IMG/VR virus record: IMGVR_UViG_2737471841_000007
Location: 1-8,605 of that record
DNA: 8,605 bases
Direction: 5' to 3' (one strand)
Source: a virus
Lineage: Duplodnaviria > Heunggongvirae > Uroviricota > Caudoviricetes
Shown: positions 2,011 through 8,605 of the stretch, piece by piece
How positions within the stretch are numbered: position 1 is the first letter of the stretch
Layout of the letters: every line of letters starts with the position of its first letter
Made by a program: the position numbers and the translations under genes
The notes under the pieces: model-generated
Told to the model about the DNA's origin: nothing
Database searches by the model: none
The model's input: only the letters and a program-made list of their open reading frames with translations

Positions 2011-2145
2011 TTAATTTGCTCCAGATACAAGGAATCACCGCAGCATGGCTACGGTTGGCATTTGTTACATACCGAAACGGTACTATTGTTGATTTGTACA
2101 GTAGGTTTTACGATGCCATTCCACCCAATTGGTGAGGCATCAAGG
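2011..2145. promoter_or_regulatory. Divergent control region between tailspike and mnt, with a candidate operator palindrome
   Basis: 135-bp gap between divergent start codons. It holds the inverted repeat TACCG-aaa-CGGTA (2069..2081), the near-repeats TTGTTACA (2062..2069) and TTTGTACA (2093..2100), and the RBS GGTGAGG (2131..2137) 8 nt before the mnt ATG. I could not find a sigma70 -35/-10 pair with canonical 17-bp spacing by eye, so promoter positions are unassigned. Confidence 0.35.
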
Positions 2146-2406
2146 ATGTACAGTAAATACGACGAGGCGCAGTTTCACTTGAGACTTCCGCATGAACTTC
2201 ACGCGAAAATTAAACAGCGCGCGAAGATGAATAACAGGTCGCTGAACTCAGAGATAATTGCAGCGATTGAAGAATCATTGGCTAAACAAAGCTCTGCATC
2301 AGTTTACATTGACGATGCAGAGCGTATGGCAGAACAACAATCTGATATGGTTAAGAAAATTGTCTTTGATACGCTCAAGAAGCTATATAAAAAAGACAGC
2401 AGATAA
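2146..2406 (+). CDS. mnt: Mnt-like ribbon-helix-helix repressor (Arc/MetJ superfamily)
   Basis: 86 aa from ATG 2146 (MYSKYDEAQFHLRLPHELHAKIKQRAKMNNRSLNSEIIAAIEESLAKQ...DDAERMAEQQSDMVKKIVFDTLKKLYKKDSR). It aligns along its length with P22 Mnt as I recall it (..FNFRMP.EVREKLKFRAEANGRSMNSELLQIVQDALSK...NDAERLADEQSELVKKMVFDTLKDLYKK). The ORF-track start at 2062 is a TTG with no RBS, whereas ATG 2146 has one. The gene is opposite in orientation to the late operon, as in P22 immI. Confidence 0.85.
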   Translation: MYSKYDEAQFHLRLPHELHAKIKQRAKMNNRSLNSEIIAAIEESLAKQSSASVYIDDAERMAEQQSDMVKKIVFDTLKKLYKKDSR

Positions 2407-2495
2407 CCATCCGTTACGGAGGATTTATGCACAGAGATATGCTGAATATTGCGTTCTACATATTTGGTTTTTGCACGTTCCTGGTGTTTGCGAAG

Positions 2496-4775
2496 CTATT
2501 CTGACAGCGCATCAGACTTAGACCCCTGAGTCAGAGCGTTAATGGCCTTTTGTGCCTGCTGCATGGCTTTCTCGAACACTGTTGATCCGCGTGGGGTGTT
2601 TGCCATTCGGAGCATTGCATTTCTGAATGGCTCGCTCTCATAGGCGCGAGTAAGAAGTCCATAGCTTACTGCTGCGCCAGTTGTTGCAGGGTTCATTGCC
2701 GTCCCATACCCAATAATGAACGGGATGGTTTGCTGCCCTGTTGGTGTTGTTACTGCTGCTTTTGCAGCCTGCTGCGTGGATTGCAGGTAGTTTTTCAATC
2801 CTTTCAGATAAGCGGCTTCCTGACCTTTAAATGTGATGCCAGTCTGGTTTTGCAGGATATTAAGCTGCCGAAGGAACTGGTCAGGGGATCCGCCAGATTT
2901 CTCCATCGCCTTTCCAATGATGCCATTGCGCATTTGCTCCCTGCCAACACGACCAACTGAGTTATACAGCGTCTTAATTTCAGATTTGTTCTTGCTGAAT
3001 AGCATGTTGTTGACAACTTCCGGCGTCAGATCGCCTTTCATGAGAACATTCTTCAGCCTGGTATTCTTTAGTTTCGCTGCTTCGTCAGCATAGACGGCAT
3101 TGGCCTGCTGATATTTACGGAGAGTATCGTTGCCAAGATTCTGACCAATGGCGCCATTGATATCGTCGGTCATTGCCTTGTAAACGCGCTGAATGGCAGC
3201 ATCGGAACGGTTTGGTAACACTGGTCGTTCCCCCTTCACGTCCATTCTGAACTGGCTGCGCAGATCGCTTAATTGCTTCAAATCCAGATTTACCGGACCA
3301 TCAGGACCAGCATTGCGAATAAGCTCATCACGATAGGATTGAAGTTTTGAAATCGTCTCGTTATCAGCGACCTTACCAAGCTTCTGCAGGTTAGATATCT
3401 CAGTATCAATCTGCTGAATTGCTCGCACAGGCTGAATGTTTACTCCAGCCATAGCATTCTGAACCTGCTCCAGTCGATTACCGGCAGCACGACGAATTCC
3501 TGATGTTTTCGCTTTAAGGCTGTCAATAACAACTGCCGGATCGTACTCGCCGAATTTATCAGCAAATCTCTGCACCAACTGGCTTCTCGCTTCCTGTTGC
3601 GTTGCTCTCATTCCGCTTGTGCCAGCCAGAGGGATATTTTCTGCTGTAGTCTGCGCCATTTTCCCGACGCGGGAAGTAGGCTGTAACAGGTCTGTGGTGT
3701 GCAGAGGCACTCCTTCACGCTCTGCAAATCTGATAGCTTGCTGCGCTTCTGGTGCAATAGCACCACGAACGCCACGATAAGCAGCGCCTAATCCACGTCC
3801 GGCAGCGTTAATAGCGCCGCCAGCCAGAACGCCAACGCCTAAATCGGTAGCGAGTGCTTCCGCATCATCTTTCGCACTATTTGCAGCAAGTGACCCGACT
3901 GCGTTTTCAGCGAGAAGGCGAGTTGCACCCTGAGCGATTCTACCAGCGAGTGTTGGTGCCTGTGTTGCCGCTCTCTCAATGCCAGCAGGAGTGAGGTAAG
4001 GCAATGCCTCAGCAAATACCCTGCCCTCTGTAGTTTGTGGAGTCAGCGCGCCTTGCTGAAGGCCAAAGTCCTGCTCTAATCCCTGCGTTGTTACTCGTGG
4101 CGCTGGGTGATATGTCCCATCGCCAATTCCGAGTTTACCGCCAGCCCATGCCGCCGCGCTTGTTACAGCATCGGCAACTGATGCAGGTATGTTTGCCACG
4201 TTCACGCCAGCCTGCACCAGTCCGCGACCAGTTTCAGCCGCGGCATTGCCAAGGTCGGAAATGAAACCTCCTTGCTGCTGTGGCGCTGCCTGTGTACTTT
4301 GCTGTACAGGCTGTTGTGTAGCTTGATTCTTCCTAGGGAGGTATTCATCAGCTTGCTGGTTGTGCAGACTCTCCGCATATGCAGTGGCATCGTCAGGATT
4401 GTCGAACATACCAAGATGCTTTCCCGTCCTCATGAAGTTATCAATAGCTTCATCATCAGACATAATGCGACCATCATCACTAACGGTAGGAATCAGCACC
4501 TCTCTACCATCTATATTGGTAGACATGCTCCGCACAGTGCTAATGCTGCCATCAGAGTTTTTAACAACAGGCCGATTGTGAATGTCAATATTACCCTTCT
4601 CTAGCAGACCTCTAGGGTAAGCAGAGTAAAACGCTTGTTTTGCCTGCTCTGCATTTTCTCCGGCTTGCGGGGCAACGACTTCATTGAAGTATTGCTCCTG
4701 AGCCTGCGCTTTTTGTTCTGGTGCTAACGCCTGATACTGTGGAGAGGCGATAACATCTTTCCATGCTTTAGCCAT
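2496..4775 (-). CDS. Putative virion ejection / DNA-transfer protein (P22 gp16-position homolog), intact
   Basis: 759-aa ORF with ATG at 4773..4775, GGGGTGA 5 nt upstream, and start overlapping the upstream stop (TAATG) which suggests translational coupling. It is Ala/Gln/Gly-rich and low-complexity, typical of podovirus ejection proteins, and is the last late gene before mnt and tailspike. Function is assigned by position and composition only; no motif was recognised. Confidence 0.5.
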   Translation of the reverse strand: MAKAWKDVIASPQYQALAPEQKAQAQEQYFNEVVAPQAGENAEQAKQAFYSAYPRGLLEKGNIDIHNRPVVKNSDGSISTVRSMSTNIDGREVLIPTVSDDGRIMSDDEAIDNFMRTGKHLGMFDNPDDATAYAESLHNQQADEYLPRKNQATQQPVQQSTQAAPQQQGGFISDLGNAAAETGRGLVQAGVNVANIPASVADAVTSAAAWAGGKLGIGDGTYHPAPRVTTQGLEQDFGLQQGALTPQTTEGRVFAEALPYLTPAGIERAATQAPTLAGRIAQGATRLLAENAVGSLAANSAKDDAEALATDLGVGVLAGGAINAAGRGLGAAYRGVRGAIAPEAQQAIRFAEREGVPLHTTDLLQPTSRVGKMAQTTAENIPLAGTSGMRATQQEARSQLVQRFADKFGEYDPAVVIDSLKAKTSGIRRAAGNRLEQVQNAMAGVNIQPVRAIQQIDTEISNLQKLGKVADNETISKLQSYRDELIRNAGPDGPVNLDLKQLSDLRSQFRMDVKGERPVLPNRSDAAIQRVYKAMTDDINGAIGQNLGNDTLRKYQQANAVYADEAAKLKNTRLKNVLMKGDLTPEVVNNMLFSKNKSEIKTLYNSVGRVGREQMRNGIIGKAMEKSGGSPDQFLRQLNILQNQTGITFKGQEAAYLKGLKNYLQSTQQAAKAAVTTPTGQQTIPFIIGYGTAMNPATTGAAVSYGLLTRAYESEPFRNAMLRMANTPRGSTVFEKAMQQAQKAINALTQGSKSDALSE

Positions 4776-5398
4776 TAATCACCCCATAGTGAAGAAAAGT
4801 TACTGCCAGTAGTAGATTGTTGCCCTGGCATATTCTGCACCGGCTCCTGATAATCAAACTGTTTTTTAACAGTGCTCAACTTGCTTTCAAGCTGATTTCT
4901 AATCTTTCCGATAGAGTCACGAAAAGCCTTTTCACTCATTTTTGGGCTTAGGGCACCAACCGCATCGGATAATTTTTTACCCTCAGCATCTGAAAGAGCG
5001 CCCATACCCTTCAGGGACTGCACCATAGGGAGGAAAGTTTGAGCTTTAAAGGTGTCGAGCCTTGCTTCAAAGTTAGCCGCATCAGAGCCAGGAACTGTCG
5101 GAAACGCTGAGCGAATTCCTACTGCTTTTGAAAGGCCGGGGCTTTGCTCTATCTCGTTGAGAGAATCAAGCGCGGTGCTGAACGTATCAACTGCACCCTG
5201 AGCGGCGGCCTGCCTGTCAGCGCGGGCTATGTCAGCCTTTTGCCGAACATCTGCCTGTTTCTGCTTTAACTCTTCAAGCTTTAACTGATTGCTTTCTCTG
5301 GCTATCTGTCTGTCCAGAGCCTTTTCTTGTAATTCTGCTCTTTGTATTTCGCGGGAAAGCGCAGCATTCTGTGCGCTGATGTTCTGTCCACGTACAGG
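4775..5398 (-). pseudogene. 3' remnant of an ejection-protein-like gene (gp20-position), no start codon; left side of a deletion junction
   Basis: The reading frame that ends at TAA 4775..4777 stays open upstream for about 207 codons, to an in-frame TGA at 5399..5401. It contains no ATG, GTG or TTG before the ATG at 5026 (the 83-aa track ORF). The product (..[57 protein letters not shown]..) is Ala/Gln-rich and looks coiled-coil-like. It is coupled to the downstream 759-aa gene. Confidence 0.55.
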
Positions 5399-5490
5399 TC
5401 ATTTGTCGCCTCGGTTCTGGCTTCATCGCTCGCCATCCAGTCCGCGTCAAACTTACACAGAATGGAATTGAGTCTGTTTTCGTCGGCCAT
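5302..5490 (-). pseudogene. Portal protein gene remnant: about 33 conserved N-terminal codons, then out-of-frame sequence and a stop
   Basis: ATG at 5488..5490 sits directly after the large-terminase stop (5491..5493), with GGAG 7 nt upstream. [33 protein letters not shown] matches the P22 portal N-terminus as I recall it ([34 protein letters not shown]). After that the ORF reads [29 protein letters not shown] and stops at 62 aa, where a portal should run about 700 aa. The downstream remnant is in a different frame. Confidence 0.7.
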
Positions 5491-6990
5491 TTAAGTTCTC
5501 CGTGCGATGGGCCTGATTGGGGCTGGTATCTTTTTCTCTTTTGGTTTTTTGATGTCGCGCATCATTTTGGCGAAGCGGCGCATCATGTATGCATAGCGAA
5601 CGGCTGAGAGAACGTCGTCGTTAAGCTTGACGATCTTCCCGTTTTCATCACGGTGATAGAGGCGAAACTCCTCAAAGAATGGCTCACAGGTGTTGAATAC
5701 TTTGAAGCGACCATCGAGCATCATGTCGCGCAATTCAGTGATGCCAGGCTCAACAGCATTACCGCCATCAGGCCATGTCGCATGCTCCTGCAACATCATA
5801 AATCCAGCGTCTGCATACTGCCCTTTGAGCTGCTCACCACCGCCCTTCTCGTGCTGGTTTCCGTCATGAGGCCATGCGGTTGGCACTTTATGCGCCCATG
5901 ATTTAACAGCTCCCCATGCCTGAACCGCTGTTTTTTCTTTCGCCTTCCACACGCGTGAAACGTAGATTGTGTCTGCGTCCTTATCCCACCAAAGCTGAAC
6001 CTGAGCCTGTGGGTGATCCCATCCGAAATCCATCCCGCCAATCACGTAGAAGTGATCAGGACACTCGAACGGCTGACACTTAATAGTCTCTTCCGGTATC
6101 TGGAAGATTCGACCACTACCCATCGTAGGAATACCGCGAGCACGCGCCTCTCTCTCATGCTCAGGATAGGATGCGATGATTTGCTCTTTCTGCTCGTCGG
6201 TGTAGTGCTCAGCGTCATAGATGGTCATGTTGACCACTTTCTGCGACTTGCTGGGATTCTTCAGGAACTTGGTAACAACGTCAGACATCCCCATCAGCGG
6301 GGTAAACGTCAGAATTGAGAATTGCCCGTATTTGTTGGTACGGGTAAGACCTTCGCCATAAATGCTGTATGGTGGCTCTTCGTCAAACCACACGCCGTGG
6401 ATTGTGTCACCCTGCCAGCGAGCGCGGCCTTGCGAGTATGGCTTGAAGTAGCAGATTGAAATGCCATCTTCAACGCCATCAGCCGTGTGATGCTTAACCA
6501 GAAGGTGATCAACAAGGTTCGGAAAGAAAGGAGACTTCTTCCAGCTAATAATGTCTTCTTTCGGTATGGAACCGTAGCCAGGCTCATCATTCTCTTCGAT
6601 ACGACCGCACAGGATGCGTTGAGTCGTTTTGGTTACAGTCTCGTTTGTCTCGCCACCAATCCAAAAGACAACGGGCTCATAGAAACGCTTACCTTTCCAC
6701 TCCCCACCATATTTACCATCAGCCGGATAGCCTTTTGTTCCCGGATAACGCCCGGTAAGGTGAAACGCGACTTCAGCAGCCCCAGTAAATGACTTACCAA
6801 GCTGGTTACCAGCCATAAAACAGCGCTCTGGATAGTCATGCCCGGCGTCGATGAACTCACGCTGTTTGCTGTATGGCGTAAATTCATATAGCAGGTGTGT
6901 GTTCCGGTAGTTCTCTTCTTCTTCGAGTAGCTCGAGCAACTCGATTTGCTCTTCGTCGCTCAGGTTATCAAGAATCGCGTCCAGTTCCAC
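5491..6990 (-). CDS. Terminase large subunit (P22 gp2-like)
   Basis: 499-aa ORF with Walker A P-loop AGNQLGKSF near the N-terminus and acidic residues in the C-terminal half consistent with a nuclease domain. Start is GTG at 6988..6990 with AAGGAG 11 nt upstream. It overlaps the small-terminase 3' end by 23 nt. Length and N-terminal sequence match P22 gp2 as I recall it. Confidence 0.9.
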
Positions 6991-7462
6991 GGTTGAATAG
7001 CTCCTTGATACGAGAGCGCCGCTTATCGCGATCTCCCTTATCAGGTGTCACGTCTTCAACTTGCGACTGCTCTTTGAGGCCCAAATCACGGGCGATGATG
7101 TTAGCGTTGAGAAGGTCAGCGGCTGCGCCAGAGAATTTCTGGTCGTAGATGATGTCTTCCGCTCGTGATGTGACGTCAGAAAAACCTTCCATTGACCGGA
7201 AGGTTCCCCATGTTTGTCTGGTGATATCAAGGAAGGTACACAATCCTGAAATAGTCATGGCTCGCATCTTAGGGACATTAGCCTTAATTATTTCTCCCTG
7301 ATATGAAAATACCTTACCCTCCCATAGCGGGTTATCATCAGCCCACTCGAAGTATTCACAACAAGCAGCCCACAGCGCCTCAGGCGATTCGAATTTAGGA
7401 TTTCGCCCATGACTACTGCGGGCCTCCCAAAATCGGTTGCCCTTTGGTGCTGCCATATTCAT
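6968..7462 (-). CDS. Terminase small subunit (P22 gp3-like); true start probably the second ATG at 7454..7456 (162 aa)
   Basis: The product (M)[37 protein letters not shown]...[60 protein letters not shown] matches my recollection of P22 gp3 at both ends. The middle (residues about 40-100) diverges. GTGAG lies 6 nt before the second ATG. Confidence 0.9.
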
Positions 7463-7491: not shown

Positions 7492-7734
7492 TCATGCTCC
7501 GGTAGTGAACAGGTCTAACGCTTCCTTCGATTTACGCACCGCTTCAAATGTGCGGATCGTGATATCTGAATTAGCGCCGCCTGACTGGAAGTGAATTTTG
7601 AATAGCTCAAGCTTCAGTTCGTCAGTGCCAATGAATTGAAATGCTTCTTCTGCGGCTGCGTTCTGGTTCATTACCAGTTTGTAAATCTCTAGCTGGAATT
7701 TCTGTTCTTCAGTCATGGGAATAATCTCTGCCAT
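7492..7734 (-). CDS. Small conserved hypothetical protein in the position of P22 ORF80, just upstream of terS
   Basis: 80-aa ORF with ATG at 7732..7734 and GGAG 6 nt upstream. Same strand and position (between rha and terS) as ORF80 in P22-like phages. No motif recognised. Confidence 0.65.
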   Translation of the reverse strand: MAEIIPMTEEQKFQLEIYKLVMNQNAAAEEAFQFIGTDELKLELFKIHFQSGGANSDITIRTFEAVRKSKEALDLFTTGA

Positions 7735-8086: not shown

Positions 8087-8605
8087 TCACTTTGGCAGCC
8101 CGGGGATCGATATTTGCGCCTGCTGCTCAAGCCTTTCGATTCTTGCTATGAGTTGCGGTTTTTTGATCCTGCCCCAGCGGTTCAGCAAGCGTCCTGACAT
8201 ACTGGCAACATCCTTTTCCTTCATGAACTCCAGCATTAACTCGTTGTGCTCTCTTTGGTATGAGTGAGCCATCTCCATCAGCCTGTCACGCATCCAATTA
8301 AATGCTTTGATAAACGCCTCTTTGATGGCGGCAGCTTTTTTGCCGGTAAACGACATGATGATGTACATCGCGCCGTCTTTGGAAATTTCATATTCAACAT
8401 ACTGATTACCCTTGTGTTCATAGGTAACCCGCGAAAAGTTGCTGGTTAGAAATTCATCCGAACAGTCTAGCTTTTCGATTTTCTGAATGATGTGGTGATG
8501 CTGCTTGTCGAAGTAAGCTGCTACCTTGCGGGAGGTTGTGATCACGCGATCACCAGAAACAACCACCATGTCCCGGAAATCGAGATTAGCCAATTGATGA
8601 TTCAT
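8087..8605 (-). CDS. rha: Rha-family phage regulatory protein
   Basis: 172-aa ORF, ATG at the window edge (8603..8605), stop TGA at 8087..8089. The N-terminal segment ..VVVSGDRVITTSRKVAAYFDKQHHHIIQKIEKL.. fits the Rha-domain pattern (V.T.SR.VAE.FGK.H..V.R.I..L). Position upstream of ORF80 and terS matches P22 orf201/rha. Because the start coincides with the window end, no RBS is visible. Confidence 0.7.
   Translation of the reverse strand: MNHQLANLDFRDMVVVSGDRVITTSRKVAAYFDKQHHHIIQKIEKLDCSDEFLTSNFSRVTYEHKGNQYVEYEISKDGAMYIIMSFTGKKAAAIKEAFIKAFNWMRDRLMEMAHSYQREHNELMLEFMKEKDVASMSGRLLNRWGRIKKPQLIARIERLEQQAQISIPGLPK

Follow-up and report, generated by a model that had tools for sequence, protein, structure and literature searches.

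In phage P22 the repressor Mnt is encoded in the immI region, between gene 16 and the tailspike gene 9, on the strand opposite to the late operon, and it represses the promoter Pant and thereby the antirepressor gene. Mnt made by a prophage acts on superinfecting P22, and Mnt and Arc are textbook models of DNA recognition by a beta-sheet. The 'ant moron' was defined by Villafane et al. in 2008; in ST64T, ST104 and Para1 it holds only mnt and one unknown gene (PMC2629481). The P22 moron may influence the level of tailspike, possibly through Mnt and Arc (PMC2629481), and a moron with mnt as its only immI gene is also known for phage L (bioRxiv 10.1101/2020.10.05.325894). Such mnt-only morons are found in L, ST64T, ST104, SE1 and ST160, with a 135-bp gap between mnt and tailspike in L and ST160. 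An orphan mnt is an ordinary and common layout, already published in related phages, and the novelty implied by the initial annotation was overstated. Why P22-like phages keep the antirepressor's repressor after the antirepressor has been lost is a question already posed for phage L; the locus described here is another well-conserved example. What it adds is clear evidence of selection on an orphan mnt and, as a modest novelty, what appears from the sequences to be a third natural class of Mnt specificity, with Gln, His and Arg as reading residues and a TACC-N5-GGTA operator.

The window, by which we mean the whole 8605-nt stretch of DNA that was analysed, represents the late region of a prophage of the P22-like (Lederbergvirus) type; its late operon runs on the minus strand, and mnt is the sole plus-strand gene of the layout (Table 1). 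The prophage that carries it is itself defective. The tailspike N-terminus is 75% identical to residues 1–117 of P22 gp9 and forms a gp9-type head-binding domain; the receptor-binding part is unrelated.

Table 1. Features of the window, in order of position
Feature	Position	Strand	Remarks
Tailspike gene, 669 aa	1–2010	−	Start at 2010; Pfam Head_binding PF09008, E 1.8e-66
Gene 9 (tailspike) leader with its RBS region, also 'boundary sequence'	2011–2056	−	Near-identical to the sequence upstream of P22 gene 9
Leader hairpin	2037–2055	−	ACCGTAGC-CAT-GCTGCGGT; inside leader; no T-run after it
Candidate Mnt operator	2068–2084		CATACCGAAACGGTACT; core TACCGAAACGGTA at 2070–2082, centre 2076
Putative mnt promoter (P22 Pmnt homologue by position)	2086–2114	+	−35 TTGTTG 2086–2091, 17-nt spacer, −10 TACGAT 2109–2114
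Pant vestige	2091–2119	−	ATGGCA (2119–2114), 17 nt, CAAATC (2096–2091); not promoter-like
Inverted repeat GATGCC ... GGCATC	2112–2141		Brackets the mnt Shine-Dalgarno GGTGAGG
mnt, 86 aa	2146–2406	+	Ribbon-helix-helix repressor with Mnt tetramerisation tail; Pfam and PDB matches
Unannotated 25-codon ORF, MHRDMLNIAFYIFGFCTFLVFAKLF	2427–2504	+	20 nt 3′ of mnt; overlaps end of gene 16 homologue
gp16-family DNA ejection protein	2496–4775	−	33% identity to P22 gp16; phrog_770, 5e-233
Portal stub fused to C-terminal half of gp20-type ejection protein	about 4778–5490	−	
Large terminase	5491–6990	−	
Small terminase (gp3 type)	6968–7462	−	
DUF2560 gene	7492–7734	−	
Rha-like gene	8087–8605	−	

The mnt product has both parts that mark the family, an Arc-like ribbon-helix-helix domain at the N-terminus (Pfam Arc PF03869, E 6.8e-15) and a coiled-coil tetramerisation domain at the C-terminus (Repressor_Mnt PF11423, E 9e-15, residues 57–82). 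It matches the solved N-terminal domain of Mnt (PDB 1MNT, E 5.1e-19, residues 6–78) and the tetramerisation peptide (1QEY, E 4.4e-8). It is 49–50% identical to P22 Mnt, ∼48% identical to that of the L-type phages and 58% to that of Gally; among relatives, the tetramerisation tail is divergent in the VSe13 and JEP4 types. The N-terminal strand is KYDEAQFHLRLP in the window and RDDPHFNFRMP in P22, so that the reading strand is QFHLR in place of HFNFR: the protein shares with the L-type phages a Gln in place of P22 His6, and differs from them by a His in place of Asn8. The start codon is ATG 2146, with a Shine-Dalgarno sequence GGTGAGG (2131–2137) 8 nt upstream. Two other starts were ruled out by this ribosome binding site and by the alignment to P22 Mnt: TTG 2062, which would open a 114-aa ORF, and the in-frame ATG 2113, used in the Sf101 annotation, which is moreover out of frame in the Serratia homologue.

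The gene is thus a full-length Mnt homologue divergent from the tailspike gene and 135 bp from it, as first annotated, and the absence of arc and ant was borne out: TBLASTN searches of the window with P22 Arc, Ant and SieA as queries found none of the three genes. For sar RNA there was no Rfam match at E up to 1 in positions 1800–2700 of the window. Compared with P22 immI, which it resembles in site and in the orientation of mnt, the window is without arc, sar, ant, sieA and orf59a, and a strong Pant is missing as well. An artefact of the window boundary does not apply, since the tailspike gene fills positions 1–2010 and arc or ant would have to fit inside 135 bp. The P22 role of repressing Pant, and thereby the antirepressor gene, has no counterpart here; homology to Mnt is not in doubt.

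As in L and ST64T, no immI gene other than mnt lies between the homologues of gene 16 and gene 9, and mnt is divergent from gene 9. Since the late genes before the moron end with the gp16-family gene, mnt and the 25-codon ORF after it make up the entire ant moron here, whereas L has an extra late-strand gene, orf62. The ORF is hydrophobic, has GGAGG 5 nt before its ATG and may share a transcript with mnt. It is intact in 72 of 72 loci, including that of Sf6, which has no mnt, and family searches with it gave no match. We considered whether the two genes could be a type II toxin-antitoxin pair. Ribbon-helix-helix antitoxins (Pfam matches to HicB and FitA-like families) resemble the cassette in fold, in being small and presumably autoregulated genes, in the promoter palindrome and in a short downstream ORF, but the Mnt-specific C-terminal tetramerisation domain is present here, and the downstream ORF occurs in Sf6 without mnt. 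The pair was rejected, there being no recognisable toxin adjoining, only this ORF of no known family.

The gap between the genes (2011–2145) is exactly 135 bp. Its tailspike-proximal part is the gene 9 leader, whose P22 counterpart, near-identical down to the presence of a hairpin, lies downstream of ant and directly upstream of gene 9; the equivalent stretch is annotated in CUS-3 as bsq1, 'boundary sequence'. The commoner relatives of the IME10 type, called class A below, have a different hairpin in place of the one at 2037–2055. The rest of the gap aligns to the mnt-tailspike region of phage L with zero net length change, and the two loci are collinear through gene 9 leader, operator and Pmnt, 135 bp in total. 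In common with the L-type morons the window also has the Pant vestige and the inverted repeat around the mnt Shine-Dalgarno; the GATGCC/GGCATC outer stem is kept in the window type, L, Gally and Serratia, with a different inner sequence. A direct repeat, TGTACAGTAGG... at 2095 and TGTACAGTAAA... at 2147, is probably a chance feature, since it is not kept in IME10-type relatives.

The initial annotation had proposed a palindrome in the gap as a Mnt operator. The proposal stands as a credible candidate on sequence grounds, though the core is at 2070–2082 and not 2069–2081. Taken alone the palindrome is within chance: in 18 of 200 shuffles the 15-mer, with up to three mismatches allowed, turned up at least once, and the 5+3+5 arrangement is absent from the general repeat-search output for the window. 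Its significance comes from position and conservation. In P22, L, Gally and the window alike, the centre of the palindrome precedes the −35 element toward mnt by 10 bp, counted to the first base of that element, which puts the window palindrome in the position of Omnt. Conservation of the mnt cassette in alignments starts exactly at the left edge of the operator, the sequence further left being mosaic. The motif ATACC-N-AAA-N-GGTAC is nearly invariant among ∼87 haplotypes and in five genera (Escherichia, Shigella, Salmonella, Citrobacter and Serratia), and is present even in divergent copies from an Escherichia sp., Salmonella phage VSe13, Citrobacter and Serratia marcescens. A search of genome contigs with a five-sequence alignment found three loci (Escherichia sp., the Citrobacter pseudogene and Serratia), which informed on conservation but were too few for statistics. 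By their upstream sequences, the 80 closest IMG/VR relatives divide into two classes, wholly different left of the operator and partly different in the promoter spacer; the motif is kept in both. Class A (IME10 and Sf101), to which most of the phages and E. coli loci of this allele family belong, has a 121-bp spacer and the imperfect palindrome TACCGAAATGGTA.

Reading strand and operator covary across three classes: P22; L and Gally; and the window. P22 has strand HFNFR, palindrome AGGTCCACCGTGGACCT (GGTCCAC-N-GTGGACC) and mnt promoter TTGAGA-17-TATCAT. L and Gally share the strand QFNLR, with palindrome AAGACCACGGTGGTCTT and promoter TTGTGG-17-TATGAT in L, whose operator is AAGACCAC-N-GTGGTCTT, and AGACCACTGTGGTCT and TTGAGG-17-TAAGAT in Gally. 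The window combines QFHLR with TACCGAAACGGTA, TACC-N5-GGTA, and TTGTTG-17-TACGAT. That the DNA-reading residues differ from those of P22, as the initial annotation noted, is matched by a different candidate operator. The innermost pair of the palindrome varies freely within the ∼87 haplotypes (G/C, G/T, T/T, T/C, A/T). The outer TACC/GGTA is almost fixed, as are the non-palindromic flanks CA...C, a pattern more in keeping with a protein site than with an RNA hairpin. The operator of the Citrobacter copy, where mnt is a pseudogene, has GGTA changed to AGTA. The window holds no second copy in cis, even at three mismatches. The candidate operator occurs once in each of the complete Sf101 and VSe13 genomes, and the only other TACC-N5-GGTA core in either, at VSe13 31041, lacks the flanks; Mnt would therefore act at only one site in its own genome.

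Promoters were scored on both strands with a simple −35/−10 consensus matrix of base frequencies, which is not a trained predictor, calibrated on the annotated promoters of P22. The site in Pmnt position scored 8.0 in the window, 13.1 in P22, 9.3 in L and 10.5 in Gally; the window score is weak, near the 90th percentile of a background of random 170-nt segments. Its ATTG and TTACGATGC are invariant in the cross-genus alignment, and we infer from the sequence that 2086–2114 is the mnt promoter. Because the site is weak and the spacer is 15 nt in class A, the real start of mnt transcription may be elsewhere. An alternative, TTGTTA-16-TATTGT with the operator in its spacer, scored 8.25 and was rejected, as its −35 element is in the non-conserved flank and is missing in class A.

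Toward the tailspike, no sigma-70 promoter was found: the best score in the region, 3.96, is below the mean best score of 5.65 per 170-nt window segment, and IME10, L and Gally had no score above 5.7, against 15.5 for P22 Pant with the same matrix. The hexamers at the Pant position (−35 and −10) are TTGACA and TATATT in P22, TCGGCA and TATATC in L, TCGGCA and TGCATC in Gally, and ATGGCA and CAAATC in the window. The decay is progressive and contrasts with the retention of the operator and of the Pmnt hexamers. Taken with the unchanged gene 9 leader, it suggests that the tailspike is transcribed as in P22, from the late promoter and across the moron, and argues against a local promoter controlled by Mnt.

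Direct juxtaposition of mnt and tailspike is found in the cultured phages Sf101, IME10, VSe13 (135 bp), JEP4, Gally, L (135 bp) and ST160 (135 bp), and in an intact prophage of Escherichia coli M9. Operator and mnt together were found in 321 of 5426 complete E. coli genomes. These E. coli loci share with Sf101, IME10, VSe13 and JEP4 the Mnt allele family of the window (62–99% identity), the operator motif and the tailspike adjacency. Among the 80 closest IMG/VR loci the gap is 121–135 bp in 65, two end at a contig edge and 13 are others; in the 11 of these 13 that were checked, the tailspike start codon is still at 121–135 bp and an insertion follows a few codons into the tailspike gene, which in the one inspected is an HNH/AP2 homing-endonuclease gene. 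No arc or ant was found at the readable loci of the 80. The comparison with relatives thus upheld both the adjacency, kept in >140 loci and three operator classes, and the palindrome motif. Another 80 loci were sampled for their relation to Gally Mnt: every one of the 65 with a Gln-type Mnt has it as an orphan adjoining the tailspike, while all 15 with a His-type (P22-like) Mnt have ant, 11 of them also arc. Kapi1, considered as a Gln-type Mnt with arc and ant, was uninformative, since its intergenic region is 32 bp and has no L-type palindrome. One CUS-3-like contig has mnt-like genes, arc and ant upstream and in addition a window-type mnt directly at the tailspike, so the cassette acts as a single unit tied to the tailspike 5′ end.

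Pairwise comparison of 56 unique mnt alleles gave a dN/dS of about 0.11 (the pairs are not independent), and the gene is intact in nearly all of the ∼87 haplotypes, so orphan mnt is maintained by selection and is not junk. Pseudogenes are occasional (Citrobacter L094 and IMG/VR L192). We also looked for a target elsewhere. The motif CATACCNAAANGGTAC has matches in at least 120 stretches of IMG/VR; the matches listed include 39 P22-like ones with their own mnt downstream and one P22-like contig-end fragment (L186) that ends before mnt, and most of the remainder have none of the P22-like marker genes searched. Among the matches listed (119 retrieved), none was an operator outside the mnt cassette in a P22-like context. 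In five high-GC contigs the exact 16-mer occurs twice, at a distance of 515 bp, before small genes near terminase. These contigs lack homologues of Mnt, Arc and Ant and seem to belong to different hosts, and the matches were judged coincidental. A good −10 element 5–7 bp before the operator, the Pant position, was found in 70 IMG/VR matches, none of them P22-like.

We consider it probable, from the sequence evidence, that this P22-like prophage carries a minimal ant moron at the locus: a self-contained mnt cassette that does not serve the tailspike locally. The cassette would comprise the operator, its own promoter, mnt and perhaps the 25-codon ORF; it would have stayed behind, between the gene 16 homologue and the tailspike, when arc, sar, ant and Pant were lost from the moron. 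The Mnt tetramer would use its N-terminal beta-strand (Q9, H11 and R13) to bind the 17 bp centred at 2076, with a specificity that probably differs both from that of P22 (H, N, R reading GGTCCAC) and from that of L and Gally (Q, N, R reading AGACCAC). As the operator abuts the −35 element of the Pmnt equivalent, Mnt would in its own genome regulate no transcript but its own, made from the prophage. The tailspike would be reached as in P22, by antiterminated late-operon transcription that runs antisense through mnt into the gene 9 leader. Pure self-regulation leaves unexplained both the strong purifying selection on mnt and the linkage of the cassette to the tailspike in three operator classes, even beside a full mnt-arc-ant set. 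The most likely reason for selection, speculatively, would be repression in trans of a matching operator on another phage; a trans role for orphan Mnt is a conjecture.

That last idea can be held as an account of the locus in its own right, in which orphan Mnt is kept as a trans-acting immunity factor: by acting on a matching operator in superinfecting or co-resident phages it would repress their antirepressor and so protect the prophage repressor. It has the precedent of P22 immI, the purifying selection on mnt, the diversification of repressor and operator specificity into at least three classes and the expected expression of mnt from the prophage in its favour. Against it, each P22-like operator among the IMG/VR matches listed precedes its own mnt, the 70 matches with a −10 element are all unrelated to P22-like phages, and in the Gally-type sample only His-type Mnt occurs with ant; we regard it as possible but rather doubtful. 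It is unlikely that the Gln-type orphan cassettes, of L and Gally as of the window, are a selected tailspike-linked module that has evolved new specificities without an antirepressor, Mnt having a second job either in gating transcription into the tailspike or as portable immunity against a so far unrecognised operator class on other phages. Loss of function fares worse: that mnt is a remnant of a degrading immI region was one option suggested for phage L (bioRxiv 10.1101/2020.10.05.325894), and is consistent with the two pseudogenes (in Citrobacter with a mutated operator too) and with the defective state of the window prophage, but the low dN/dS, the retention of operator, promoter and ribosome binding site across five genera, the near-universal integrity of the gene and its carriage by cultured phages make it quite improbable.

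The remaining readings concern the tailspike and the palindrome. The initial annotation raised the possibility that Mnt controls a promoter feeding the tailspike; on this reading Mnt would repress a promoter within the 135 bp, a Pant now joined directly to gene 9. The operator does sit between the two genes, their adjacency holds across the three operator classes and persists with a complete immI upstream, and an influence of the P22 moron on tailspike level, possibly through Mnt and Arc, has been considered (PMC2629481). The region, however, scores below background toward the tailspike; the Pant hexamers have decayed where operator and Pmnt hexamers were kept; the leader is as in P22, where it is transcribed from upstream; and class A relatives have wholly replaced the sequence left of the operator. 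The sequence does not support the claim, and we give it little credence. Equally little attaches to the reading in which operator-bound Mnt, or convergent transcription from Pmnt, damps late read-through and so tunes the dose of tailspike. Late transcripts do cross mnt antisense and then the operator before the tailspike, to whose 5′ end the cassette is strictly linked, but antiterminated RNA polymerase usually passes small repressors, and Sf6 and HK620 make tailspike without any mnt. A similar idea was raised for P22 by Villafane et al. (PMC2629481). It is very improbable that the palindrome arose by chance, or that it forms a small RNA hairpin or terminator instead of a protein-binding site: 2070–2082 was flagged as terminator-like on the plus strand and a 5-bp stem is within chance expectation, yet its innermost pair is often broken while outer arms and flanks are fixed, there is nothing upstream on the plus strand to terminate, and the position matches Omnt exactly.

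For the study of beta-sheet DNA recognition, a Gln/His/Arg Mnt with its TACC-N5-GGTA candidate operator would offer a natural specificity variant. The comparison also allows correct annotation of a gene found in about 6% of complete E. coli genomes; in records of the Sf101, IME10, VSe13, JEP4 and E. coli type, mnt is often unannotated or mislabelled 'partition protein ATPase'.

Among 80 IMG/VR loci (L286-L365) sampled for relatives of the Mnt of phage Gally, the residue at the His6 position of Mnt followed the gene context. Within this sample, Gln at this position was always found in an orphan mnt, without arc or ant (65/65), and His6 always in an mnt beside ant (15/15, 11 of them with arc too).

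Immunity I genes and an mnt of the window's type can occur on one contig. In the CUS-3-like L152, two mnt-like genes in tandem are followed by an arc-like gene, an ant whose product is 85% identical to P22 Ant, and a 270-aa ORF, after which the window-type mnt and its operator directly adjoin an endosialidase-type tailspike gene.

Features located in the window and in related IMG/VR loci
Feature	Source	Coordinates	Strand	Content
Portal/gp20-type fusion region	window	4778-5490	-	portal stub and part of ejection protein
25-codon ORF, previously unannotated	window	2427-2504	+	translation MHRDMLNIAFYIFGFCTFLVFAKLF
Inverted repeat GATGCC...GGCATC	window	2112-2117 and 2136-2141		flanks mnt ribosome-binding site
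immI-type genes and window-type mnt	L152	7309-10761		two mnt-like genes, arc-like gene, ant, 270-aa ORF, window-type mnt
HNH/AP2-type homing-endonuclease ORF	L022	3330-3869	+	179 aa

The outer stem of the inverted repeat is common to the window-type, L, Gally and Serratia mnt cassettes, while the inner sequence varies. The repeat overlaps the putative -10 element of the mnt promoter, and in the antisense (late) transcript it would fold into a hairpin.

The 16-mer CATACCGAAACGGTAC, which resembles the operator, was found as two exact copies, 515 bp apart, in five contigs among the matches listed (L103, L110, L148, L164 and L201). These are unrelated phage contigs of higher GC, in which the copies lie right behind TATATA and ~20 nt upstream of the start codons of small genes close to a terminase. 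Here the 16-mer is probably the operator of another repressor, matching by coincidence.

On the tailspike side of mnt, the homing-endonuclease ORF of L022 is placed between a duplicated tailspike 5′ end (the start codon and a few codons, 121 bp from mnt as before) and the real tailspike start. Judged by gap size, L072, L076 and L087 resemble it, with a gap of ~728 bp equal to that of L022. In ~7 further relatives the tailspike gene is similarly broken a few codons in, insert content having been examined only in L022, and phage JEP4 has an AT-rich insert of ~190 bp at the spot matching the L022 insertion.

Downstream of mnt, the 25-codon ORF begins 20 nt past the stop codon of that gene. A GGAGG precedes the ATG of the ORF by 5 nt, and the stop codon of the gp16 homologue overlaps with the ORF. 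Its product has a hydrophobic body behind a charged head and had no match in PHROG or NCBIfam. The full length is kept in all 72 loci that carry the ORF, among them that of Sf6, a phage without mnt.

The window belongs to a defective prophage, in which portal residues 1-39 (5490-5377) are fused, in a different reading frame, to residues 218-431 of a gp20-type ejection protein (5419-4778). Missing as a result are the portal, scaffold, coat and head-completion genes, along with gp7 and half of gp20. None of the complete E. coli genomes searched spans at least 80% of the window.

The name 'partition protein ATPase' is widely given to Mnt in phage records of RefSeq and in PHROGs (Sf101 gp14, ST160, ST64T, P22 RefSeq; phrog_795). 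This identity is wrong, since Mnt is a ribbon-helix-helix repressor of 83-86 aa. In the IME10 record, mnt is left without any annotation.
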